A stretch of 64,000 nucleotides of DNA from Bacteroidota bacterium (GTDB lineage Bacteria; Bacteroidota; Ignavibacteria; Ignavibacteriales; Ignavibacteriaceae). Each line of letters begins with the position of its first letter. Positions within the stretch are counted from its first letter, which is position 1. Shown here piece by piece: positions 5,981-15,877 of the stretch. The DNA lies in NCBI GenBank assembly GCA_021777835.1, contig JAJYDC010000012.1, positions 3,295-67,294 on the forward strand, written 5' to 3'. The notes beneath the pieces are model-generated. The model saw only the letters and a list, made by a program, of their open reading frames with translations. It made no database searches and was not told where the DNA came from. Both the position numbers and the translations under genes were made by a program.

Positions 5981-7786
5981 TTAGGCTAATTGATGAGTAT
6001 ACTCATTAAGCATAATTTCAAGTTCATCTAAGTCTTCTTTTATTTTCTGCCTTGTCTTTTCCGTCTCTTCTATAATCTCAGGAATAAGGTTTTTATAATA
6101 CTTGATCCCATCCATTAGGTTTGTATGGAAAGTATTTATAAATTCCTCAGCATGCGTTGAAAGGGGAGTAAGATTCTCATCTATTTTTTTCTTCAAGAAA
6201 TTTATATATAGATTAAGTTCTTTAATAAACATATTTGGTCTATTATGATTCGTAATTAGATTTATTCTACCGTAGATATGATCAACCATTTCATGTAAGG
6301 TAGCAACCTTTGAATAATAGGCTAAATTAGGGCCGGGGCAGACAGAGACTGCTTTACTGATTTTAGGTGTATCAATATTATTTACTTTTAAGACAGAAGC
6401 TGCAAGACCGACACAAAGGCAAACCTTTTCCATTGTCTTATCAACACCCTTTTGCGATTCAATAGGGTCATTAGAGTTTAATTTAATTTCATTAGTTTTT
6501 TTATTTACATAAGAAATGGATGCAGTGCAGGCCGGTTTATCCGAAAACTCTTTATTAGAGACAAGGAATTTCTTAATACAGGGAGCTCCCGGTTTACCGT
6601 CCTTAATTCTATCAGCCTTTTCAACTTCTTTGCTGCTTGTTCTAAGATTGCTGAAAGGGACGCCAAGAGGTGAAACGTCGCTTAAGTAAATATCATCTTC
6701 TCCTGCTTCACAAAGTCTTTGTAAAGTTTCATCATCAACATTCATGACTTCAGGGACAAGAAGGAAAGGACTTCCCCAGCCAACTGATTTGACTCCATAT
6801 TTTCTAATAAGGAAATTATGCTCGCTTGCATTGCCGACTCCACCCTGGACGGTAATATCGAAATTGAGAATAGATTCATCAAATGAAATTTCTTTTTTAG
6901 ATAATGACTTCTTTAGCAATTCGCGCAGAGATTCGAGTAATTCATTTTTCTTGTTGGTAAACTCTTCAAGAATAGGGCCTAAGAGGTAGCCATCGGTAGC
7001 AAAGGCATGACCTCCGCAATTTAGTCCTGATTCAATCCTATATTCGGAGACCCACAGACCTTTATTAGCAAGAAACTTCCCTTGAATCAATGCAGAGCGA
7101 AAGTCACTTACTTTGATAATTATTTTCTTAGTGAAGCTGCAGTCGCGTTTTGGGAAGAAGTCCTTAAATGTGCTAAGGTAGCTATATAATCGTGTATTTA
7201 TACCAGCAGAAAAGACTACAGCGCTTTCAAGGTCGCTATTTGCAAATCCTCTAAGAGCTGCATGTGCGTCGTTATATTCTACTGGAAGCTGGGCGCCAAG
7301 AGTATCATAATTAGCTTTGTCTAGCTTAGTCATTATATTAACGTCGATAGCGCCGAGTCTAATATTTTCACGGAGCCACTTTTGCAGAGAAAGCAGTATG
7401 CTTGAATCTTTGGTCTCAAGCATCTCTTTATATTTAATTTTTAACGTTGAGATATCGGGGAGCATTTCAAAGTATTTGTTTATTTCGCTGCCATGCTCAA
7501 ACACGGATTGTTTTAGTATTTGGAATTGTTCTTTAGCAAGGCGATTCATCAAATTTAAATATGCGGTAATTCTTTTCGCTCTAGAGTCGTTTTCCTTATC
7601 GCCTATTTCCGAATAAATAATATTATTCTTTTCAGCATAATGCTTACGCAATTTTTCCATTAGTGTATCGTCAGCTAAAGACATAACAGATGATATACCA
7701 TACTTTGATACTTTTACCGGAGCATCAATAGAAAATCCGGTTCCCAAAACGGGTATGTGGAAATGATGAAGATCAGAAATACTCAT
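5981..7786 (-). CDS. Uncharacterized 601-aa protein with nitronate-monooxygenase/FabK-like TIM-barrel motifs
   Basis: A long uninterrupted ORF. The motifs ESGLNCGGHAF and TVQGGVGNASEHNFLIRKYGVKSVGWGSPFLLVPE resemble the GGH and GG...G.G.FL motifs of NPD/FabK-type flavoenzymes. This is by eye only. Confidence 0.45.
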   Translation of the reverse strand: MSISDLHHFHIPVLGTGFSIDAPVKVSKYGISSVMSLADDTLMEKLRKHYAEKNNIIYSEIGDKENDSRAKRITAYLNLMNRLAKEQFQILKQSVFEHGSEINKYFEMLPDISTLKIKYKEMLETKDSSILLSLQKWLRENIRLGAIDVNIMTKLDKANYDTLGAQLPVEYNDAHAALRGFANSDLESAVVFSAGINTRLYSYLSTFKDFFPKRDCSFTKKIIIKVSDFRSALIQGKFLANKGLWVSEYRIESGLNCGGHAFATDGYLLGPILEEFTNKKNELLESLRELLKKSLSKKEISFDESILNFDITVQGGVGNASEHNFLIRKYGVKSVGWGSPFLLVPEVMNVDDETLQRLCEAGEDDIYLSDVSPLGVPFSNLRTSSKEVEKADRIKDGKPGAPCIKKFLVSNKEFSDKPACTASISYVNKKTNEIKLNSNDPIESQKGVDKTMEKVCLCVGLAASVLKVNNIDTPKISKAVSVCPGPNLAYYSKVATLHEMVDHIYGRINLITNHNRPNMFIKELNLYINFLKKKIDENLTPLSTHAEEFINTFHTNLMDGIKYYKNLIPEIIEETEKTRQKIKEDLDELEIMLNEYTHQLA

Positions 7787-8186: not shown

Positions 8187-8433
8187 ATTCTTATTTTATT
8201 TGCCATGCATTTGAGAAGGGCTTGAAAAAGCTGATTGTACCGACTTTCAAGTTACGTAATCAAGAAAAAGCGATCACGATTTGCACTATAAATAATAATA
8301 AATTATTAGGTATTAATCAAAACCGAAAATTGAATTATTATATTTCCCAATTATTATTTGTTAATAGCTAGCAACTCAGAAAAGCATCAAGGAGTTTTTA
8401 TCATAGATTCCTTAAATAAAATATTGAACACTT

Positions 8434-8504
8434 TGTTGATTTACATTTCAACTTTTAACTACTGATAGAAATATCTGTTGGTATATTCAACAGCGTGTTG
8501 ATTA
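8434..8504 (+). promoter_or_regulatory. Candidate enhancer (UAS) sites for the sigma-54 activator
   Basis: TGTTG motifs occur at 8434, 8476 and 8496, spaced 42 and 20 bp apart. Two inverted repeats are present: GTTGA-N8-TCAAC (8435-8452) and CTGTTG-N7-CAACAG (8475-8493). They sit about 110-180 bp upstream of the candidate -24/-12 element. Confidence 0.3.
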
Positions 8505-8610
8505 AAATCCTTACAGTATTTTCAAGCAATTCTTATAATAAATTCATCATCATTCTTCTAACCTTATCGTTCAAAATAAGTTAAGAAATAATAATTTTAA
8601 AAAAATTTAG

Positions 8611-8626
8611 TGGTATGCTAATTGAA
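8611..8626 (+). promoter_or_regulatory. Candidate sigma-54 (-24/-12) promoter
   Basis: TGGTATG-CTAA-TTGAA compared with the consensus TGGCACG-N4-TTGCW. GG and TTG are correctly spaced, but the conserved -12 C is an A. It lies 37 nt upstream of the RBS-supported start at 8663. A sigma-54 activator is encoded downstream. Confidence 0.35.
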
Positions 8627-8662
8627 CTAAAGAGTATAAAATTTAGTTATAAGGAGGATGTC

Positions 8663-8887
8663 ATGTTAACGTTTTTATTAGTACTTGTTTTAGTATTTGC
8701 CGCAGTTGATCTACTAGTATTACTAGTTATAGAGCCGCTGGCAAAAAAGGAGAAAATAAGAAAAGCTCGTCAGTCAGCATATCAAGAAAGAACTATTCCG
8801 ACGATGGGATTTGTAGGGGCAACAATGTACGACGGTGGAATTAAAAAGGAAAAAGAAAAAGATTCTAGCGAAAAGAAGTCTTCTTAA
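8663..8887 (+). CDS. 74-aa single-pass membrane protein with a C-terminal GATMYDGG motif
   Basis: The start is reassigned to the ATG at 8663, preceded by AAGGAGG (8652-8658). It has an N-terminal TM helix (LTFLLVLVLVFAAVDLLVLLVI), then a K/R-rich segment, then MGFVGATMYDGG. Confidence 0.6.
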   Translation: MLTFLLVLVLVFAAVDLLVLLVIEPLAKKEKIRKARQSAYQERTIPTMGFVGATMYDGGIKKEKEKDSSEKKSS

Positions 8888-8919
8888 TTATTCAAAAAAA
8901 TTAACAATAGGGAGATAAT

Positions 8920-9588
8920 ATGGTCGGAATGTTCATTGTAGTGACGTTTATAATTTTTTTGATAATAGACGTAGTAGTATTGAAAATGCAAAACAAACCC
9001 CATCCAGCTTTTGGGACAATTACAGCAGCAAATTTACTTGTATTCAACGATTACAATTTTGATATTCCTGATAATCTGATGTTTTCAAGGTCTCACACAT
9101 GGCTGCAGAGCAATGATAAAGGGCTTATTAAAATAGGAGTAGATGATTTTGTAGGTAAAGCAATAGGGGCTTATTCCTTTTCAAGTTTCGCAGGAGTTGA
9201 CAGGGATATTAAAAGAGGAGACACAATCTTTGAAATATCATCCGGCAACAGATCAATAAAAATTCCATCACCCATTGACTGTACATTAAAGTCAGTAAAC
9301 GAAGGGGTTTTTGCTAAAACAAACTTAAGTCCTTATCAGGATTGGGGTGTGCAAGTAAAGCCTAAGAATAATGAAGACAACCTTCGTCAATTAATTTATT
9401 CAAAAGACGCTGCCGCATGGATGAAGGGTGAAGTAAAGAGGCTAAAAGGTTTTATGAAAGGCACGTTTCAGCAAGCTGATATAGCCGGTTTAACGATGTA
9501 CGATGGAGGTACTGCAGTTAAAAGCGTTATTACAATTTTGACAGATAAAGAATTTCAGAATTTTCAAAAAGAATTTCTCACATTATAG
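8920..9588 (+). CDS. Membrane-anchored GcvH-fold protein lacking the lipoyl lysine, with a LTMYDGG motif
   Basis: It has an N-terminal TM helix. The segment HTWLQSNDKGLIKIGVDDFVGKAIG...GDTIFEISSGNRSIKIPSPIDCTLKSVN aligns by eye with E. coli GcvH [25 protein letters not shown]...[28 protein letters not shown]. An Asn sits at the lipoyl-Lys position. Confidence 0.6.
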   Translation: MVGMFIVVTFIIFLIIDVVVLKMQNKPHPAFGTITAANLLVFNDYNFDIPDNLMFSRSHTWLQSNDKGLIKIGVDDFVGKAIGAYSFSSFAGVDRDIKRGDTIFEISSGNRSIKIPSPIDCTLKSVNEGVFAKTNLSPYQDWGVQVKPKNNEDNLRQLIYSKDAAAWMKGEVKRLKGFMKGTFQQADIAGLTMYDGGTAVKSVITILTDKEFQNFQKEFLTL

Positions 9589-9599
9589 GTAGCAGGAAA

Positions 9600-10376
9600 A
9601 TGTCGAAAACTAAGGGACTATTGTTTGATGTAACACTTTGTATTGGCTGCGGAGCATGTTATGATGCTTGTAAGCAAAAAAATAAATTACCAAAGACTAA
9701 TCAGAATTTTCTAAGTGATCATCTTTCAGCAAACACATTTACAGTTTTAGAACAATACAATGAATATTATGCTCGTAAGCTTTGTATGCATTGTGATGAG
9801 CCATCATGCGTATCGGTTTGCCCTGTGGGAGCCTTTTCTAAAAGTAAAACAGGGGCTGTTCTTTATGATGGTGATAAGTGCATTGGGTGCAGGTATTGTA
9901 TGCAGGCATGTCCTCATAAAGTTCCAAGATATGAATGGGGAAAGACGCAGCCGAGAGTTAGAAAATGCAATATGTGTGATGATAGAATCAAAGAAGGAAA
10001 AATTCCAGCATGTGCTGAAGCATGTCCAACCGAGGCTACTTTATTCGGAGATATTGACGAATTAGTTGAAGTAGCAAAGAGGCGGATAAAAGAAAATAAG
10101 CGGAATTACTATCCTCATATTTATGGATTAGATGAGGCAGGCGGAAGTCACGTATTGATACTTTCGCCGGTTCCGTTTGAACAACTCGGCTACACACCGC
10201 ATTTGCCAAAAGAACCGATGCCTATGTTAACAATGAAAGCCATGGAAAAGATTCCTCCTGTTGTAGGAGTGGGAGGAATTTTCCTTGGCGGAATGTATTG
10301 GTTAACAAAAAGGAAGAACCAAATTGCAAAAGAGAAAAATGAAATAAAGAAGGAATTACAAGAACATGAAAACTAA
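9600..10376 (+). CDS. NrfC/HybA/DsrO-like 4x[4Fe-4S] ferredoxin subunit with a C-terminal TM anchor
   Basis: It has four Cys clusters: CIGCGACYDAC, CMHCDEPSCVSVCP, CIGCRYCMQACP and CNMCDD...CAEACP. A C-terminal helix (VVGVGGIFLGGMYWL) is followed by a K-rich tail. There is no twin-arginine signal. Confidence 0.85.
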   Translation: MSKTKGLLFDVTLCIGCGACYDACKQKNKLPKTNQNFLSDHLSANTFTVLEQYNEYYARKLCMHCDEPSCVSVCPVGAFSKSKTGAVLYDGDKCIGCRYCMQACPHKVPRYEWGKTQPRVRKCNMCDDRIKEGKIPACAEACPTEATLFGDIDELVEVAKRRIKENKRNYYPHIYGLDEAGGSHVLILSPVPFEQLGYTPHLPKEPMPMLTMKAMEKIPPVVGVGGIFLGGMYWLTKRKNQIAKEKNEIKKELQEHEN

Positions 10377-11538
10377 TTCATTGCTGAAATTTACGTTCTG
10401 GAAGATAGTAGCGGTTATAATTATAGTTGCTGGATTTATTTCAACATATTACCGATTTACAAAAGGATTAGGTGCCACAACAAATCTAAGTGATTTAGTT
10501 CCCTGGGGACTATGGATAGGCTTTGATTTTCTTGGAGTAGGATTAGCAGCAGCGGGATTTACGATAGCAGCGACGGTGCATATTTTCAATCTTCATAGGT
10601 TTGAGCCGATAGTTCGCCCGGCTATATTAACTGCATTTATCGGATATTCACTTGTTGTAGGGTTGTTAGTAGTTGATCTTGGTCGTCCTGAAAATTTTTG
10701 GCATCCTCTTGTAATGTGGAATATTCATTCAGTTATGTTCGAGATTACGTGGTGCATAATATGTTACACAACAGTGCTTATGCTTGAATTCGCGCCTGTA
10801 GTTTTAGAGAAGTTTAATCTGAAAGCACCGATTAAGCTTCTTAAGAAAATATCGATTCCTATAGTAATTGCCGGAGTTTTATTTTCTACACTTCATCAAT
10901 CATCATTCGGTTCACTCTATTTAATTGTTCCGGGAAGGCTTTACCCGCTGTGGTATTCATCATTATTGCCTGTTCACTTTTATATCTCCTGTATAGCGGC
11001 AGGAATATCAATGATAATATTTGAATCGTACATAAACGCAAGAGCGTTTAACACGGGTCTTCGATTAAATATATTATCTGAGCTTGCAGTTGTTGTCGTA
11101 ATTGTATTAGCAATTGAATTTATACTAAAGATTTCCGATTTACTTCTATCAGGCAAATTCAATTATTTAATTACCCTGAACATGGAATCATTTTTGTTCT
11201 ACCTTGAAATCATAATAGGAACATTTCTGCCGATAATATTATTAGGCAGCAAACGAAACCGGGAGAACAAGGGCATATTATTTATAGGGGCGATTTGTGT
11301 AATATGCGGATTCATTCTTAACAGGATGAATGTTTGCATGACAGGTATGGCGGCATCTTCAGGAGTAAGTTATTTTCCATCATTTGATGAAATCAGTATA
11401 ACTTTTATGCTTGTTGTGTTAGCCATGATTGCTTTTAACCTTGTAGTACAGAACTTCCAGGTATTCACATACACAGAGGAACATGTTATTCAAGAAAATG
11501 GAGTTGTTGAAACAAAGAAAATTATTACAAGTGAATAA
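10366..11538 (+). CDS. NrfD/HybB/DsrP-family integral membrane (quinone-interacting) subunit
   Basis: A 390-aa protein with about 10 hydrophobic helices. It overlaps the FeS gene by 11 nt. This is the canonical NrfC-NrfD gene pairing. Confidence 0.8.
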   Translation: MKTNSLLKFTFWKIVAVIIIVAGFISTYYRFTKGLGATTNLSDLVPWGLWIGFDFLGVGLAAAGFTIAATVHIFNLHRFEPIVRPAILTAFIGYSLVVGLLVVDLGRPENFWHPLVMWNIHSVMFEITWCIICYTTVLMLEFAPVVLEKFNLKAPIKLLKKISIPIVIAGVLFSTLHQSSFGSLYLIVPGRLYPLWYSSLLPVHFYISCIAAGISMIIFESYINARAFNTGLRLNILSELAVVVVIVLAIEFILKISDLLLSGKFNYLITLNMESFLFYLEIIIGTFLPIILLGSKRNRENKGILFIGAICVICGFILNRMNVCMTGMAASSGVSYFPSFDEISITFMLVVLAMIAFNLVVQNFQVFTYTEEHVIQENGVVETKKIITSE

Positions 11539-11539
11539 A

Positions 11540-12262
11540 ATGAACAATAAAGACGAGTATCAAGACAATCGCTTTTTTAATCTGAAATGTATATGGATGG
11601 CTTCCAGGACGGTAGAATATAAATTATGCGATAGAGAATTCAATTGTGACGACTGCCAGTTCGATCGGGAGGTAAGGAATAGCGATTTCAATAATGAAAA
11701 GACAGATATCAATCAGAGGAGTATTCTCGATTCATTAAGCGATAAGCTTCAAAATATTAAATATGATGAAAAGGTTATTTATCTTAAAAATAGTCTGATG
11801 ATAAAGCAGATATTCGGCAACACATTCTATTTAGGGCTTAATCCAATTTTGCAGCCATTCCTTGAGGGTGTAAAATTCATAAAAGAATGTGAACTAGGGA
11901 AATATATTTTAAAAGGAAATCCGGTACTTCAATTCAGAGGTGAATGGGGTGAGATAACCCTAAGCTCGCCAATTAATTTTTTAATGTACGATATAATGAA
12001 TAACCGAAGCTGTGACATGCTTAAGAATAAATGGTTTGCAATAGTGGGAATAATTCAACCAGAAGTATCAATAGGTATAATCACGAAGAAAGATTGGGAT
12101 GAAACATTATACAAGTCATTTGAATTTGTGGAGGCAATTAAAACGGCACCCCCAGCAGTTGGTGCTACGATGCAAGACGGCGGATGCCAGATAAGATATT
12201 TATACGAACTGATAGGAGTATCAAAATTTAGAGAAGTATTGAACACAATCTTAGGCATTTGA
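11540..12262 (+). CDS. Soluble Cys-rich GcvH-fold protein with a GATMQDGG motif
   Basis: The start is reassigned to the ATG at 11540, 1 nt after the nrfD-like stop. The N-terminus carries Cx12Cx5Cx2C (CIWMASRTVEYKLCDREFNCDDC). A central GcvH-like segment (FYLGLNPILQPFLEGVKFI...GNPVLQFRGEWGEITLSSPINF) has no lysine at the lipoylation position. The C-terminus has PAVGATMQDGG. Confidence 0.55.
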   Translation: MNNKDEYQDNRFFNLKCIWMASRTVEYKLCDREFNCDDCQFDREVRNSDFNNEKTDINQRSILDSLSDKLQNIKYDEKVIYLKNSLMIKQIFGNTFYLGLNPILQPFLEGVKFIKECELGKYILKGNPVLQFRGEWGEITLSSPINFLMYDIMNNRSCDMLKNKWFAIVGIIQPEVSIGIITKKDWDETLYKSFEFVEAIKTAPPAVGATMQDGGCQIRYLYELIGVSKFREVLNTILGI

Positions 12263-12292: not shown

Positions 12293-12318
12293 ATCCCGTA
12301 TTTAATACGGGATTTTTT
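12293..12318 (+). terminator. Rho-independent terminator of the NrfCD-like operon
   Basis: ATCCCGTAT (12293-12301) pairs with ATACGGGAT (12305-12313) around a 3-nt loop. It runs into a T6 tract ending at 12318. Confidence 0.7.
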
Positions 12319-12328
12319 ATGGAATTAG

Positions 12329-12357
12329 TTGACACTAGCAAAAGTAATTCCTAAATT
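12329..12357 (+). promoter_or_regulatory. Candidate sigma-70-type promoter of the kinase/regulator operon
   Basis: TTGACA (12329-12334), a 17-nt spacer, then TAAATT (12352-12357). It lies 25 nt upstream of the GTG start at 12382. Confidence 0.35.
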
Positions 12358-12381: not shown

Positions 12382-13968
12382 GTGAAAACCAAAATATTAA
12401 ATAGATTAAGCGTCCGCCTTATAATATCAATCTCCTTTATATTAGTCACCATTTTTTCAGTATACACCTATATAATTGTAAAGAATCTCGACAAATATTT
12501 AACCGAAGCTCGATTTGAGAGTGCATACAACATTAGCGATTTGATTAAAAAGTCAACACGTTATAGTATGTTACTAAATAGGCGAGAAGATGTGCACCAA
12601 ATAATCAAGACGTTGGGGACGGAAATTGGTGTAAAGAACATTAGAATATATAACAAACAGGGATTGATTATTTTTTCAACGGATTCCTCTGAAATCCTAA
12701 AGAAAGTAAACGTAACTGCAGAAGCCTGCATAGTTTGTCATAACAGCACAATTCCTATACAAAGTATAACTAATCAAAATAAGATCCGAATATATAAGAA
12801 TACAGAAAACAAGCGAGTGCTTGGATTAATAAATCCAATTCAAAACGAGCCTGATTGTTCAAACGGAGATTGTCATGCACACTCGCCAAAAGTAAAGATT
12901 CTCGGAGTACTAGATGTAGTAGTAACACTTGATGAACTTGACAAAATAATATCCCAGAACAGGCAGAGTACAATACTTAGTGCAGTGTTAATCACAATTG
13001 CTATCTCATTCTTCTGCGGGCTATTCATCATTTTGCTTGTCAACAAGCCGATGAAGCAATTGACAAAAGGTATAGATGAGGTAGGCAAAGGGAATTTGAA
13101 TTATAAAATAGGGTTAAAGTCAAAGAACGAATTTGGTCAGATGGCAAAGAGATTCAATGAGATGTCTGAAAAATTAAATGAGGCATACAAAGAAATTAAG
13201 AATTGGTCAGAGACTTTAAATGATAAGGTAAATGAAAAAACAGAGGAGTTAAAGAATATATATAACCAAGTAAATCAGATTGAAAAATTAGCTTCACTCG
13301 GCAAACTTTCAGCGACAGTGGCGCACGAATTAAACAATCCACTTGAAGGGATATTAACATACAGCAAGCTTATCATGAAGAAATTAAATGCGATTCAAAA
13401 GGAATCGGAATTTTCAAAGATGATAGAATATCTTGCACTTATTTCAGATGAATCTTCACGCTGCGGAAAAATAGTGAAAGACCTTCTTTTATTTTCTCAT
13501 GAAGAAAAAGATGTTTTTGCGTTAGAGAGTCTTCCGGCAATAATAGATAAAAGCATAAGGCTTATTAATCATCATCTTGAAATTCAAAAAATAACTTTAG
13601 AGAAAGATTACCTTAAAGAAGGAGTAATGATAAATTGTAATGCGCAGAAAATTCAGCAAGCTCTGATGTCATTGTTTATCAATTCAATTGAAGCTATGCC
13701 GCATGAAGGGAAAATAATAGTAAAGCTAAGTAAAGAAAAGGATCAGGCAGTTATAAGAGTGATAGATGAAGGCACGGGTATTTCGGAGAAAGACTTACCT
13801 CACATATTTGAACCATTCTATTCAACTAAAGAAGCATCAAAGGGCACCGGGCTAGGTCTTGCTGTGGCATATGGGATAATAGCCAATCACAATGGTCATA
13901 TAACAGTTGAAAGTACTTCTCTAAAGGGGACAACATTTAAAGTTAATTTACCGTTAAATGAACAATAA
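12382..13968 (+). CDS. Sensor histidine kinase with heme-c motifs in the periplasmic domain
   Basis: Two TM helices (about residues 9-33 and 196-220) flank a roughly 160-aa loop. The loop contains CIVCH (C116-H120) and CSNGDCH (C159-H165). A HAMP-like linker, an H-box (ATVAHELNNPL) and ATPase motifs (DEGTGI, GTGLGL) follow. Confidence 0.85.
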   Translation: MKTKILNRLSVRLIISISFILVTIFSVYTYIIVKNLDKYLTEARFESAYNISDLIKKSTRYSMLLNRREDVHQIIKTLGTEIGVKNIRIYNKQGLIIFSTDSSEILKKVNVTAEACIVCHNSTIPIQSITNQNKIRIYKNTENKRVLGLINPIQNEPDCSNGDCHAHSPKVKILGVLDVVVTLDELDKIISQNRQSTILSAVLITIAISFFCGLFIILLVNKPMKQLTKGIDEVGKGNLNYKIGLKSKNEFGQMAKRFNEMSEKLNEAYKEIKNWSETLNDKVNEKTEELKNIYNQVNQIEKLASLGKLSATVAHELNNPLEGILTYSKLIMKKLNAIQKESEFSKMIEYLALISDESSRCGKIVKDLLLFSHEEKDVFALESLPAIIDKSIRLINHHLEIQKITLEKDYLKEGVMINCNAQKIQQALMSLFINSIEAMPHEGKIIVKLSKEKDQAVIRVIDEGTGISEKDLPHIFEPFYSTKEASKGTGLGLAVAYGIIANHNGHITVESTSLKGTTFKVNLPLNEQ

Positions 13969-13982
13969 TTAAAGAGACAGAC

Positions 13983-15338
13983 ATGAATACTAAAGAAAAA
14001 ATTTTAATAGTCGACGACGAAAAGATAGTCAGAGAATCTCTTTTCCATTGGTTTGAAGAAGAAGGTTACGAAGTAGACACTGCGGAAGACGGGGAGAGCG
14101 CATTAAGAAAATTTGAGAAGATCAAATTTGATCTTCTTTTAGTAGATATGAAAATGCCGGGTATGAGCGGACTGGAATTATTGGCTCGCATAAAAGCAAT
14201 TGACACTGAATCAGTAGTAATTCTGATAACGGCATTTGCATCAGTGCCAACGGCTATTTCTGCGCTTAAGAACGGTGCGTATGATTATGTAACAAAGCCT
14301 GTTGACCCGGATGAGCTAGCACATCTTGTACAAAAAGCACTTGAACAGAAAGCGTTGAAGCTTGAAAACAAGCAGCTGAAGGAAAACATCGAAGAAATAA
14401 TTAAGCCGGATAATTTGATAGGTGAGAGCTATCAGATGAAAAAGATTTATGAACTAATACATACAGTAGCTCCGGGAGACACAACTGTAATGATACGTGG
14501 AGAGAGCGGAACAGGAAAGGAATTAGTAGCAAAGGCAATACATATTAATAGTAAAAGAAAATATTTTCCAATAATTCCAGTTAATTGCGGTGCTTTAGCA
14601 GAATCACTTTTAGAAAGCGAGCTATTCGGGCATGAAAAGGGTGCATTTACCGGAGCTCAATTTAAGAGAAAAGGCAAATTTGAAATGGCTGACGGGGGAA
14701 CGATATTTCTAGACGAAATAGGATCTGTTTCGTTGAAAATGCAGATTGAACTATTGCGAGTCATTGAGTCGAAACAATTCAACCGAGTAGGAGGGAACGA
14801 GCTAATTAAAAGTGACTTCCGAATTATTGTCGCTACAAATGAGCCGTTAGAAGAACTTGTAAAGGCTGGCAAATTTAGAGAAGATCTTTATTATAGGTTA
14901 AATGTGTTTTCAATAGTTATTCCGCCATTAAGAGAGAGACGGGATGACATTCCGCTGTTAGCAAATTTCTTTCTTAAGAAATTCTCGGTTGTAATGAATA
15001 AGCCTTTGAAGAAGATATCAAAGGAAGCGCTAGACTTTTTGGTTCATTATGATTGGCCGGGTAATGTAAGGGAATTGGAAAACGCGATGGAACGAGCGAT
15101 GGTAATAGGGAAGATGGATACAATAGTAGTTGATGACCTGCCGTTTCATGTTTCCTCGAATAATTTTGTAAGTGAAGACGGCTACAAGAGTTTATCGGCA
15201 ATGGAGAAGAAGTATATAAATAAAATTCTGAATGAAAATAATTGGAATATATCAAGAAGTGCTTCTATACTTGAAATAGACAGGGTGACGCTGTATAACA
15301 AAATTAATAAATACGGGTTACGTAAAGTATCTTATTGA
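13983..15338 (+). CDS. Sigma-54-dependent response regulator (NtrC family: REC, AAA+, Fis-type HTH)
   Basis: It has a receiver domain (ILIVDDE...DLLLVDMKMPGMSG), a Walker A motif (GESGTGKE), the GAFTGA signature (HEKGAFTGAQ) and a C-terminal HTH (NISRSASILEIDRVTLYNKINKYGL). Confidence 0.9.
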   Translation: MNTKEKILIVDDEKIVRESLFHWFEEEGYEVDTAEDGESALRKFEKIKFDLLLVDMKMPGMSGLELLARIKAIDTESVVILITAFASVPTAISALKNGAYDYVTKPVDPDELAHLVQKALEQKALKLENKQLKENIEEIIKPDNLIGESYQMKKIYELIHTVAPGDTTVMIRGESGTGKELVAKAIHINSKRKYFPIIPVNCGALAESLLESELFGHEKGAFTGAQFKRKGKFEMADGGTIFLDEIGSVSLKMQIELLRVIESKQFNRVGGNELIKSDFRIIVATNEPLEELVKAGKFREDLYYRLNVFSIVIPPLRERRDDIPLLANFFLKKFSVVMNKPLKKISKEALDFLVHYDWPGNVRELENAMERAMVIGKMDTIVVDDLPFHVSSNNFVSEDGYKSLSAMEKKYINKILNENNWNISRSASILEIDRVTLYNKINKYGLRKVSY

Positions 15339-15877
15339 TGGATATTTATATTGCACCATTAAAATTCTCGAATGCATTGTTACTCGGAGACATAATTTCT
15401 GAATTATCGAATAGATTTGTTTCCAAAATCAGTGTGATTGAAATGCAGTTAAATGCTGGGAAATATTTGTCGAAAGAGAGGGGGCAATATTATTCTACCG
15501 GACTAATAGCCGACGCTATGAATATTACAGGAAACTATAGCGGTAAGATTATTATACTGACAGAAATCGATTTATATGTTCCAGTACTTACATTTATTTT
15601 CGGAGAAGCGCAGCTAAACGGTAAGCATTCAATAGTATCGGCGTGCAGGCTTCATGAAGAATTTTATTCAGGTAAATCCGATGACAAGATATTATTTGAA
15701 AGATTAATGAAAGAGATATTACACGAACTTGGGCATACTTATGGACTGCGTCATTGTGTAAACTGGGATTGTGTAATGCACACCTCACCGGGAATCGAAG
15801 AAGTAGACATCAAAGGGAGTGACTACTGCAAAAGATGTGCTTCAATAGTAGACGGATACAAATCGCCTTATTTTTAA
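15338..15877 (+). CDS. Archaemetzincin-like (peptidase M54) zinc metallopeptidase
   Basis: HELGHTYGLRHCVNWDCVMH...(16 aa)...CKRC matches the archaemetzincin signature HEXXHXXGX3CX4CXMX17CXXC except that the spacer is one residue shorter. The ATG at 15338 overlaps the regulator's stop codon (TGATG). Confidence 0.75.
   Translation: MDIYIAPLKFSNALLLGDIISELSNRFVSKISVIEMQLNAGKYLSKERGQYYSTGLIADAMNITGNYSGKIIILTEIDLYVPVLTFIFGEAQLNGKHSIVSACRLHEEFYSGKSDDKILFERLMKEILHELGHTYGLRHCVNWDCVMHTSPGIEEVDIKGSDYCKRCASIVDGYKSPYF

Follow-up and report, generated by a model that had tools for sequence, protein, structure and literature searches.

Several described systems bear on the locus studied here. In signalling, PII proteins contact NtrB and further targets through their flexible T-loop, and regulated proteolysis is known from RseA, which is cut by DegS/RseP. 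The Myxococcus protein CarG, part of the CarD–CarG regulatory complex, is an archaemetzincin homologue that lacks the catalytic Glu and acts without proteolysis. For the archaemetzincins themselves (M54; AfAmzA, MkAmzA and human AMZ1/2), the natural substrates are reported as unknown (PMC3427221). Further comparisons are offered by GcvH (PF01597) and by the NrfC/NrfD-type modules (HybA/HybB, HmcB/HmcC, DsrOP and QrcCD). In the 64 kb window (the whole stretch of DNA analysed), relatives of GcvH, of NrfC/NrfD and of the archaemetzincins are encoded in one gene cluster, which has the following features.

ORF A, 8663..8887, + strand: 74 aa; N-terminal membrane helix with conserved Asp, basic linker, motif, low-complexity acidic tail
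ORF B, 8920..9588, + strand: membrane helix, GcvH-like domain without lipoyl lysine, C-terminal extension with motif
ORF C, 9600..10376, + strand: NrfC/HybA/HmcB-like iron-sulfur protein; multiple 4Fe-4S-type domains, hydrophobic C-terminal stretch
ORF D, 10366..11538, + strand: NrfD/HybB/HmcC-like integral membrane subunit, about 10 predicted helices
ORF E, 11540..12262, + strand: soluble; N-terminal four-cysteine motif, divergent GcvH-fold domain, C-terminal extension with motif
Terminator-like hairpin, 12293..12313, + strand: between E and the kinase gene; 9-pair stem, then T run
Promoter-like site, 12329-12357, + strand: 3' of the terminator-like hairpin; TTGACA-17-TAAATT, consensus match only
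ORF F, 12382..13968, + strand: sensor histidine kinase; two membrane helices, extracytoplasmic domain, HAMP, HisKA, HATPase
ORF G, 13983..15338, + strand: sigma-54-dependent response regulator; receiver, AAA+, HTH_8
ORF H, 15335..15877, + strand: archaemetzincin (Peptidase_M54); intact HELGH...H motif, four-cysteine site

Gene cluster and its relatives

Judged from the sequence, A, B and E are probably transcribed together as one unit. A ribosome-binding site (AAGGAGG) lies just 5' of the ORF A ATG, and the hairpin at 12293-12313, terminator-like by consensus match only, parts A, B and E from the kinase genes. The kinase ORF F, which directly follows E in nearly all loci, matches HAMP, HisKA and HATPase_c in Pfam, has membrane segments at residues 9-27 and 202-220, and contains CIVCH and CSNGDCH in its extracytoplasmic domain. 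ORF G matches Sigma54_activat (E = 1.5e-69) and Response_reg (E = 1e-32), and its stop is overlapped by the start of ORF H by 4 nt. About 80 Ignavibacteria loci have the order A-B-NrfC-NrfD-E-kinase-sigma-54 regulator-M54 peptidase, about 85 further loci have a Bacteroidota-type version of it, and the gene order including H is also kept in the distant locus L003. H adjoins the kinase and regulator genes in 68/82 loci and in 30 Bacteroidota-type loci. Genes for the T and P proteins of glycine cleavage are absent from the cluster. We found no published description of this signalling cluster or its bacterial gene context in the literature; the motif loop described below is a marker of this previously undescribed cluster. 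The arrangement, in which a kinase and a sigma-54 regulator are encoded alongside a small protein whose exposed loop does not vary, may parallel the PII T-loop and NtrB, and the dedicated protease encoded in the same unit may parallel RseA and DegS/RseP; however, neither the fold nor the loop sequence nor the type of protease is shared with those systems.

The C-D pair is closest to HmcB/HmcC and HybA/HybB, yet all of its scores fall below the curated cut-offs. ORF C matches Fer4_11 (E = 2e-24) and has HmcB and HybA as its best NCBIfam matches, with the match beginning at HmcB profile position 35; ORF D matches PF03916 NrfD (E = 2e-23), shows 10 membrane segments in a hydropathy scan, and has HmcC and HybB as best NCBIfam matches. 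Unlike the described modules, C and D have no catalytic or cytochrome partner and sit inside a signalling cluster, where the pair is dispensable in some relatives. The Ignavibacteria iron-sulfur subunit also differs in having no Tat signal: ORF C has no signal peptide, and a Tat signal was seen in 0/18 operon-type orthologues with N-termini inspected. A second NrfC, in neighbouring divergent clusters, carries SRRDFLK, unlike the operon-type NrfC.

The T-M-x-D-G-G loop of ORFs A, B and E

The initial annotation had pointed to a motif shared by A, B and E, and all three quoted peptides were found: GATMYDGG in ORF A (core at nt 8816-8839), GLTMYDGG in ORF B (9487-9510) and GATMQDGG in ORF E (12161-12184). 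A six-frame scan of the whole window returned 3 matches to G.TM.DGG, all in these ORFs, and the looser TM.DGG found the same 3 sites and no others. The strict pattern has a single match among 5,307 other ORFs (454,505 aa) from 82 related loci, an A-like small membrane protein of L003. The motif is non-random. Conservation in orthologues had been set beforehand as the refuting test, and T, M, D, G and G turned out nearly invariant. DGG is present in 40/40 orthologues of ORF A, 73/76 of ORF B and 79/87 of ORF E; in ORF A, T is kept in 40/40 and M in 37/40. Arg replaces Thr in 13/79 ORF E orthologues. The position preceding the motif Thr varies greatly (V, A, E, T, D or N), and position -1 to the motif Asp differs even among the three proteins of a single genome, with D-G-G and T-M fixed. 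Bacteroidota relatives carry V/I/L-L/F/M in place of T-M, so that only [DE]-G-G is universal, and distant relatives of ORF B retain x-[DE]-G-G alone. The motif is covered by no Pfam, NCBIfam or PADLOC model. The T-M-x-D-G-G loop of A, B and E is real and strongly conserved.

The carriers had been described as three otherwise different proteins, which holds for A, a membrane helix plus motif only, but not for B and E. These two align with an hhalign probability of 99% (E = 9e-18, 172 columns) with their motifs in register; the homology runs through both the GcvH-like domain and the tail, making them paralogues, and the motif they share was therefore inherited and not independently acquired. Both have the barrel-sandwich fold of GcvH, B by Pfam match (residues 54-169 to PF01597 GCV_H, E = 5e-12) and E, which has no Pfam match, by model. 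The core of the E model superposes on the H-proteins 1onl, 1htp and 3a8k (TM-score on the target, 0.75-0.78), and Streptococcus pyogenes GcvH-L (PDB 5a35) is also among its matches. In contrast to GcvH, the lipoyl-lysine position is Asn in B (counted as Asn110 when the E. coli lysine is paired by profile alignment) and Trp in E. B and E also differ at the N-terminus, which bears a membrane helix in B and a four-Cys motif in E (C17, C30, C36 and C39; invariant together with D-G-G in 28 aligned orthologues), and in having a roughly 50-residue C-terminal TMxDGG extension covered by no solved structure or Pfam model.

The motif lies, as had been stated, outside the recognisable domain, in a tail. 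In the AlphaFold model of ORF B (mean pLDDT 88), motif residues 187-195 fall below 50 and lie between helix 161-183 and helices 203-219; in the E model, motif residues 208-215 are likewise below 50. In both models the motif is a loop between helices and the lowest-confidence stretch of the GcvH-tail region. For ORF B, a full-library HMMER search gave 578 cluster representatives at E <= 1e-10. DGG is present in 136 of the best 150, mostly 24-29 residues from the C-terminus, and about 25 of the best 150 are roughly 550 aa long. Two full-length relatives of this size that were read consist of a signal peptide, a periplasmic domain and a membrane helix, then the GcvH-tail module, and in one (P0143) the periplasmic domain matches PBP_like_2. 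In L003, an E-like module is fused to HisKA/HATPase, directly upstream of the HisKA phospho-acceptor domain. ORF A has no Pfam or NCBIfam match. Across its 40 orthologues the helix (VDL...PL) and TMYDGG are kept, and the low-complexity sequence after DGG is unconserved. The conserved intramembrane Asp is common to the A and B helices.

Covariation of peptidase H with the motif

ORF H matches PF07998 (E = 8e-27) and the archaemetzincin structures 3zvs, 2x7m and 3lmc. It has the extended zinc motif of the family, HE..H..G..HC...C.M...C..C, which is found with the catalytic HEXXH intact in 68/68 Ignavibacteria orthologues. Like CarG, H stands in a transcription-regulatory context, but it keeps the catalytic Glu; unlike other archaemetzincins, it has candidate substrates (A, B and E) encoded beside it.

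In 30 Bacteroidota-type loci with H, the second paralogue (B2) carries QDGG in 19/20 loci where H has Glu 3 positions before HEXXH, and QEGG in 10/10 where H has Val or Leu at this position. Ignavibacteria H has Glu there in 68/68, alongside DGG motifs. The -3 residue aligns with Glu114 of AfAmzA, which together with Lys146 sets the depth of the S1' pocket (Graef et al. 2012, PMC3427221), and the neighbour of the Lys146 equivalent turned Lys in 8/11 members of the clade with the altered -3 residue. The change from Glu to Val in H and that from D to E in B2 fall in one Bacteroidota clade and thus count as one joint transition. This clade is also marked by many other columns, in all proteins, and L128 has Val in H yet DGG motifs. 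In the first paralogue (B1), QEGG occurs only with Pro at H column 152 (5/5), whose AfAmzA counterpart in the alignment is Phe136, part of the S1'-wall segment; the column is otherwise Ser/Ala (25/25), and the 21 of these with a B1 motif on the contig always have QDGG. The B1 change would represent two or more events, a count taken from unbootstrapped neighbour-joining trees that disagree in detail. Columns that perfectly separate by B1 motif state number 5/183 in H, 3/565 in F and 1/447 in G, with none in C, D or B2, although conservation is lower in H than in any other protein compared, so that its count is inflated by variable columns.

Candidate partners of the loop

We propose that the motif is the signature loop of the C-terminal extension in a cytoplasmic, non-lipoylated GcvH-like family, with B and E as paralogous members and A as a minimal version, a membrane helix plus loop. 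The conserved signalling cluster reads (A)-B-[NrfC-NrfD]-E, followed by the histidine kinase, the sigma-54 response regulator and the M54 archaemetzincin. B may serve as the transmembrane input, with a periplasmic binding-protein-like domain in Bacteroidota, and E as the kinase input module, which elsewhere is fused straight to the kinase core. That the loop is the recognition, and perhaps the cutting, site of H is plausible, though we place it somewhat short of probable. The exposed T-M-x-D-G-G loop would be a common recognition site, with the motif Asp filling the S1' pocket of H and facing its conserved Lys, while Met/Thr take P2/P3 and the two Gly take P2'/P3'. Cleavage by H at x|DGG, before the Asp, would detach the C-terminal helices, which are conserved, from B and E and the acidic tail from A, and may thereby set or reset the two-component pathway. 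In a weaker variant, H would bind the loop without cleaving it. Metzincin specificity can be dominated by the primed side, and a variable position -1 beside fixed D-G-G and T-M fits such an enzyme. Degeneration of the motif in L075, L078 and L080, which lack A, B and H, and its retention in L055, L067, L083 and L084, which keep B and H without an operon-type NrfCD pair, also point to H. An earlier suggestion of a common recognition or cleavage site is the favoured one, with M54 conserved and S1' residues changing along with Asp-to-Glu, while the cleavage itself we infer. Several points speak against H as the partner. The AfAmzA groove was read by Graef et al. as favouring basic or hydrophobic substrates (PMC3427221), and an Asp entering a pocket floored by Glu and Lys is not an obvious fit. 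The motif-bearing relatives L081, L082 and L086 have no M54 gene in the stretch seen, cleavage of the L003 fusion would part sensor from kinase, CarG acts without proteolysis (although it lacks the catalytic Glu that H keeps), and the covariation covers few evolutionary events.

Somewhat unlikely, in our view, is docking onto a non-protease partner within the signalling complex, either of B with E (A being a competitor or adaptor) or onto the kinase or regulator. An exposed, low-confidence loop that hardly varies across two paralogues and a mini-protein suits such a role, as do the L003 fusion, five Bacteroidota genomes with an identical motif variant in both paralogues, and kinase columns 271, 279 and 323-325, in the linker from HAMP to the phospho-acceptor domain, which also track motif state. 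Yet the motif is degenerate in L075, L078 and L080, which keep E-kinase-regulator without A, B and H; it is therefore unneeded for E-kinase coupling, which weakens the docking onto the kinase suggested at the outset. L096, L113, L121 and L169 combine QDGG in B1 with QEGG in B2, so the two loops need not match, no B2 column separates perfectly with B1 state, and the H changes at S1' pocket positions are left unexplained. Those changes are equally unaccounted for if the Asp-Gly-Gly turn is only a hinge that folds the C-terminal helices onto the GcvH-like domain. Gly-Gly turns are common as hinges, in B and E the loop always separates a long helix from the terminal ones, and distant relatives keep just x-[DE]-G-G; but ORF A has nothing to fold after DGG, a hinge does not require the invariant Thr and Met, and it should be modelled confidently, whereas the loop has the lowest confidence of the tail in both models. 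We regard a hinge as improbable.

Docking onto the NrfC/NrfD pair, the leading idea of the initial annotation, is very improbable. The genes do adjoin in most loci, the Ignavibacteria NrfC without a signal peptide could share the cytoplasm with the tails, and the intramembrane Asp shared by the A and B helices could pack against NrfD. However, L055, L067, L083 and L084 keep the motif, with B and H, without an operon-type pair: the fetched stretches of L055, L067 and L084 contain B-E with genes for the kinase, regulator and peptidase but no NrfCD, and the sole pair of L083 is low-scoring and downstream of H. L086 carries the motif beside hydrogenase and Hdr-like genes without NrfCD, no NrfC or NrfD column separates with B1 motif state, and the Bacteroidota-type NrfC has a twin-arginine signal (RRNFFK) and is thus periplasmic, whereas the motif tails are cytoplasmic. 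A covalent modification, cofactor or metal site is highly improbable; it could take the form of phosphorylation or flavinylation of Thr, of a redox sensor based on reversible oxidation of Met, or of a metal site to which Met and Asp of several subunits contribute. In favour are the invariance of Thr, Met and Asp in a loop that is exposed, the redox module encoded next to the proteins that carry it, and a superficial likeness of 'GAT' to the ApbE flavinylation motif, [ST]-G-A-[ST]. That motif requires a small residue before the Thr, though, against the variability seen at this position; Thr can be Arg in ORF E orthologues, T-M is replaced in Bacteroidota relatives, none of the genes conserved in the cluster encodes a modifying enzyme, and flavinylation of the ApbE type takes place mostly outside the cytoplasm, whereas the motif tails lie within it.

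If true, recognition of the loop by H would provide candidate targets for the archaemetzincins, a protease family with natural targets reported as unknown (PMC3427221).

The TMxDGG loop and the proteins that carry it

Six-frame translation of the window yielded only three sites that match G.TM.DGG, and the shorter TM.DGG recovers the same number. The three peptides quoted in the initial annotation were found there as stated:

8816-8839, + strand, motif in ORF A (8663-8887)
9487-9510, + strand, motif in ORF B (8920-9588)
12161-12184, + strand, motif in ORF E (11540-12262)

The motif is conserved in orthologues, with DGG present in 40/40 for A, 73/76 for B and 79/87 for E, and it is rare elsewhere: the one strict match in 454,505 aa of other ORFs from related loci comes from the distant locus L003, where an A-like mini-protein carries it. 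Across 28 homologues of E, D-G-G shows no change, and conservation of G, T and M is at least 90% each. A full-library HMMER search with B returned 1,590 cluster representatives, 578 of them at E ≤ 1e-10; DGG occurs in 136 of the best 150 B relatives, mostly 24–29 residues from the C-terminus, and distant family members retain just hydrophobic-x-[DE]-G-G. While T-M and D-G-G are fixed, position -1 is variable and differs between A, B and E of one genome. In the AlphaFold model of B (mean pLDDT 88), residues 187-195, between helix 161-183 and helices 203-219, are the sole segment below 50. The same drop is seen in the E model at residues 208-215, between helix 183-202 and helix 221-239, the other low-confidence segments of E being all N-terminal (1-15, 21-26 and 42-57). 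That the tail loop modelled with the least confidence has an invariant sequence fits an exposed element that would gain order only through a partner. The motif is thus real, specific and deeply conserved, and it marks a signalling cluster for which we found no earlier description. A superficially similar M-x-D-G-G string in ORF G, FEMADGGTIFLDEIG at 14691-14699, was treated as unrelated; we take it to be the usual Walker B region of the sigma-54 activator family.

The three carriers had been described as otherwise different proteins. This holds for A, a separate mini-protein, but not for B and E, which are paralogues that inherited the motif. In B, a GCV_H domain (PF01597, E = 5e-12) follows an N-terminal membrane helix and precedes a tail of ~50 residues. 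E has no Pfam or NCBIfam match, and BLASTP between B and E gave nothing significant; the paralogy is drawn from three other lines of evidence. PF01597 is carried by P0057 and P0058, the most distant E homologues among those listed; the E model matches H-proteins in Foldseek (E = 2e-6, TM-scores 0.75–0.78); and when the two families were compared profile against profile, 172 columns aligned at 99% probability (E = 9e-18), the two motifs falling in register. B (by PF01597) and E (by its model) share the barrel-sandwich fold of GcvH, but both lack the lipoyl-attachment lysine of the E-S-V-K-A hairpin. The lipoyl lysine of E. coli GcvH aligns with Asn in the B-family consensus in the profile alignment, which by counting is Asn110 of B. 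At the lipoyl hairpin of E stands Trp136-Gly137, almost invariant; this correspondence was obtained by counting back from a conserved Pro. B also scores only 37.9 and 50.9 bits against NCBIfam gcvH equivalog cut-offs of ~116–117, and E has no match.

A has little beyond the motif itself: a membrane helix and a basic linker lead up to it, and the acidic tail behind it is not conserved. An AAGGAGG ribosome-binding site precedes the ORF of A. Its helix resembles that of B, with a conserved intramembrane Asp in both. Long relatives of B begin with a signal peptide and a periplasmic PBP-like domain; a membrane helix follows, then a basic stretch (RRSKKR in P0124) and the GcvH-tail region. The tails of A, B and E are placed on the cytoplasmic side by the basic residues that follow the helices and by the architecture of these long relatives. 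The four N-terminal cysteines of E are invariant in the 28 homologues. The kinase gene lies directly downstream of E in nearly all loci, and in L003 the HisKA and HATPase_c domains are fused to an E-like module that has the four Cys, GCV_H and a tail reading LTMQDGG. E is therefore coupled to the histidine kinase by both adjacency and fusion, the latter marking it as a kinase input module. In the cluster, a GcvH fold that has lost lipoylation plays this role.

Several relatives lie outside the common arrangement. The A-like mini-protein of L003 (3784-4104; membrane helix and LGLTMADGG) belongs to a distant lineage and is absent from the deeper Ignavibacteria branches, which points to either two gains or an old origin followed by frequent losses. 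A second E-like paralogue follows the peptidase gene and precedes another sigma-54 activator-like gene in L022 (13665-14483), L023 (13741-14478) and L032 (13832-14566); it has no DGG motif and reads ...DNNEKIRYFYQLIG. In L086 (9001-9693), a soluble relative with an N-terminal Cys-rich motif and LGITMADGG stands alone between a [NiFe]-hydrogenase set and an Hdr/MvhD-like set, and neither NrfCD nor M54 is encoded in the 16 kb covered, a context that links the motif family to other redox enzymes too.

Organization and distribution of the gene cluster

A, B and E share a strand with an NrfC/NrfD-like pair that lies between them; genes for a two-component system and a peptidase follow:

9600-10376, + strand, ORF C, NrfC-like
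10366-11538, + strand, ORF D, NrfD-like
12293-12313, terminator-like hairpin downstream of E
12329-12357, promoter-like site downstream of E
12382-13968, + strand, ORF F, histidine kinase
13983-15338, + strand, ORF G, sigma-54 response regulator
15335-15877, + strand, ORF H, M54 archaemetzincin

Judging by the hairpin and promoter-like site, A-E probably form one transcription unit and F-G-H another, in which the start of H overlaps the stop of G. No sigma-54 promoter consensus was found upstream of A near 8200-8660 at ≤2 mismatches, and the window-wide count was that of chance. A genome scan with the E alignment returned 80 loci, mostly from Ignavibacteria metagenome-assembled genomes, and most of them have the gene order A-B-C-D-E-F-G-H or the identical order minus A. 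The same cluster is present on Bacteroidota-type contigs, where B includes a periplasmic domain and the position of E is taken by another GcvH-like protein, likewise anchored in the membrane, and 80 further metagenome loci carry this type. Word-indexed protein searches had a narrower reach: B gave 3 close matches only, and H gave only relatives above 60% identity, distant M54 contexts being beyond it. PADLOC reported no defence-system match. The parts all come from known families (GcvH fold, NrfC/NrfD, sigma-54 two-component system and M54), and our literature search found nothing on GcvH-like proteins with NrfD, archaemetzincin with sigma-54 or GCV_H sensor kinases, nor a description of the cluster or the motif.

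The surroundings vary. Many related loci (L009-L041 and others) have a second, divergent cluster of NrfC (Tat signal, SRRDFLK), NrfD, kinase and regulator directly upstream of A on the opposite strand; the window instead has a 601-aa ORF (5981-7786, minus strand) with no significant Pfam match. SCO1/SenC and LpqE-like (PF04314) genes stand directly upstream of B in L004 (4093-5092), which may be coincidence. In the extracytoplasmic region of ORF F (residues ~28-201), CIVCH and CSNGDCH resemble sites at which c-type haem is attached, or else metal sites; the Bacteroidota-type orthologue of L085 has CSSCH and CYVSACH in similar places.

Candidate partners of the loop

The initial annotation proposed that the motif is either a docking peptide, for the NrfC/NrfD pair or the kinase, or a site of modification or cleavage. 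C, with multiple 4Fe-4S domains (Fer4_11, E = 2e-24), stands beside D (NrfD, E = 2e-23) as in the quinone-interacting modules HybAB and HmcBC, but the curated HmcB/HmcC and HybA/HybB cut-offs are missed (266 vs 420, 208 vs 263, 288 vs 550 and 276 vs 450). C also lacks a Tat signal, the window protein beginning at HmcB profile position 35. None of the operon-type Ignavibacteria NrfC N-termini read has a signal peptide, and the adjacent second NrfC has SRRDFLK. A Tat signal is present in the Bacteroidota-type NrfC, which speaks against docking to this pair; the C/D module either faces the cytoplasm in one lineage or is exported by an unknown route. Three loci (L055, L067 and L084) retain B and E with F, G and H and intact motifs with no C/D in the fetched stretch, and in L083, likewise with an intact motif, the one C-D pair scores low and follows H. 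NrfCD is thus an unlikely partner. The kinase alone is also unlikely: L075, L078 and L080 retain E-F-G without A, B and H, and there the motif of E is degenerate.

Known glycine-rich and modified motifs were considered and rejected. ApbE flavinylation sites, usually extracytoplasmic, follow [DN]-x-x-[ST]-G-[AS]-[ST], and a small residue precedes the Thr that is modified; in our motif, Thr is preceded by V, A, E, T, D or N, the position two before it is Gly rather than Ser/Thr-Gly, and the tails, following a membrane helix and basic stretch, are placed in the cytoplasm. ThiS/MoaD proteins have a beta-grasp fold, GG at or near the C-terminus and an E1-like or JAMM partner; here the fold is GcvH-like, GG is mostly 24–29 residues from the end, and the conserved cluster has no ThiF/JAMM gene. 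A double-glycine leader was likewise rejected, on motif context, fold and gene content.

The best candidate for a partner is H. It matches PF07998 (E = 8e-27) and the extended archaemetzincin motif HEXXHXXGXXHCX4CXMX17CXXC, which is found in 68/68 orthologues; the window protein reads HELGHTYGLRHCVNWDCVM...CKRC, its last spacer having 16, not 17, residues. Archaemetzincins are found in archaea, bacteria and vertebrates, and CarG, a catalytically dead bacterial homologue, acts in transcription regulation. Structures have been solved, yet published work describes the natural substrates of the family as unknown and finds no activity of its archaeal members towards standard substrates (PMC3427221). 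In the archaemetzincin AfAmzA, the depth of the S1' pocket is set by Glu114 and Lys146 (PMC3427221).

Co-variation of the motif with the archaemetzincin pocket

S1' pocket positions of H co-vary with the acidic residue of the motif. In the 30 Bacteroidota-type loci with H, the second GcvH-like paralogue (B2) has QDGG together with Glu three residues before HEXXH in 19/20, L128 with Val being the exception that breaks the rule, and QEGG together with Val or Leu in 10/10; the Val/QEGG loci form one clade, so this correlation represents one evolutionary event. That clade is also marked by many columns in all compared proteins, and clade structure dominates the mutual information of all columns with motif state, which is not sufficient evidence on its own. 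In Ignavibacteria, H has Glu at this position in 68/68 and the motifs are DGG. The position aligns with Glu114 of AfAmzA, and the neighbour of the Lys146 equivalent becomes Lys in 8/11 members of the Val clade. The first paralogue (B1) shows a further association, with QEGG only where column 152 of H, which aligns with Phe136 in the S1'-wall segment of AfAmzA, is Pro (5/5). The other 25 loci have Ser/Ala, and all 21 of these with the B1 motif on the contig read QDGG. Columns that separate perfectly by B1 motif state number 5/183 in H vs 4/1,945 in C, D, F, G and B2 together, and at least two events for B1 were inferred from unbootstrapped neighbour-joining trees.

The pocket co-variation favours the recognition or cleavage part of the original proposal and suggests cleavage between x and DGG, with Asp or Glu at P1'. 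A variable -1 with fixed T-M and D-G-G is a pattern that fits a metzincin reading mainly the primed side. A candidate peptide for H would be TIPTMGFVGATMYDGGIKKEK, with the predicted cut between Y and D or between Q and D. The single Val/QEGG clade, the unbootstrapped trees, L128 and the motif-bearing relatives L081, L082 and L086, which have no M54 gene in the stretch available, temper this reading. We therefore consider recognition or cutting by the archaemetzincin of the cluster the most likely role of the motif, with a confidence somewhat short of even, and a docking loop with no part in proteolysis rather unlikely. Smaller weights were given to a structural hinge, a modification site and NrfCD binding. 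If H does cut at the motif, with the Asp placed next to Glu127 and Lys160 of the predicted S1' pocket, exchanging Glu127 for Val should move the preference from Asp to Glu.

The cluster, conserved and apparently undescribed in roughly 165 loci fetched, supplies three co-encoded candidate archaemetzincin substrates and a predicted scissile bond. It is conceivable, though on balance doubtful, that the TMxDGG loops of A, B and E are the first natural archaemetzincin substrates, with an Asp-N-like cut before Asp set by a Glu/Lys S1' pocket. H would then be a dedicated processing protease that switches an undescribed signalling pathway, widespread in Ignavibacteriota and Bacteroidota, in which GcvH-like proteins would connect a sigma-54 two-component system with a transmembrane input and, as an optional part, a redox module of the quinone type.
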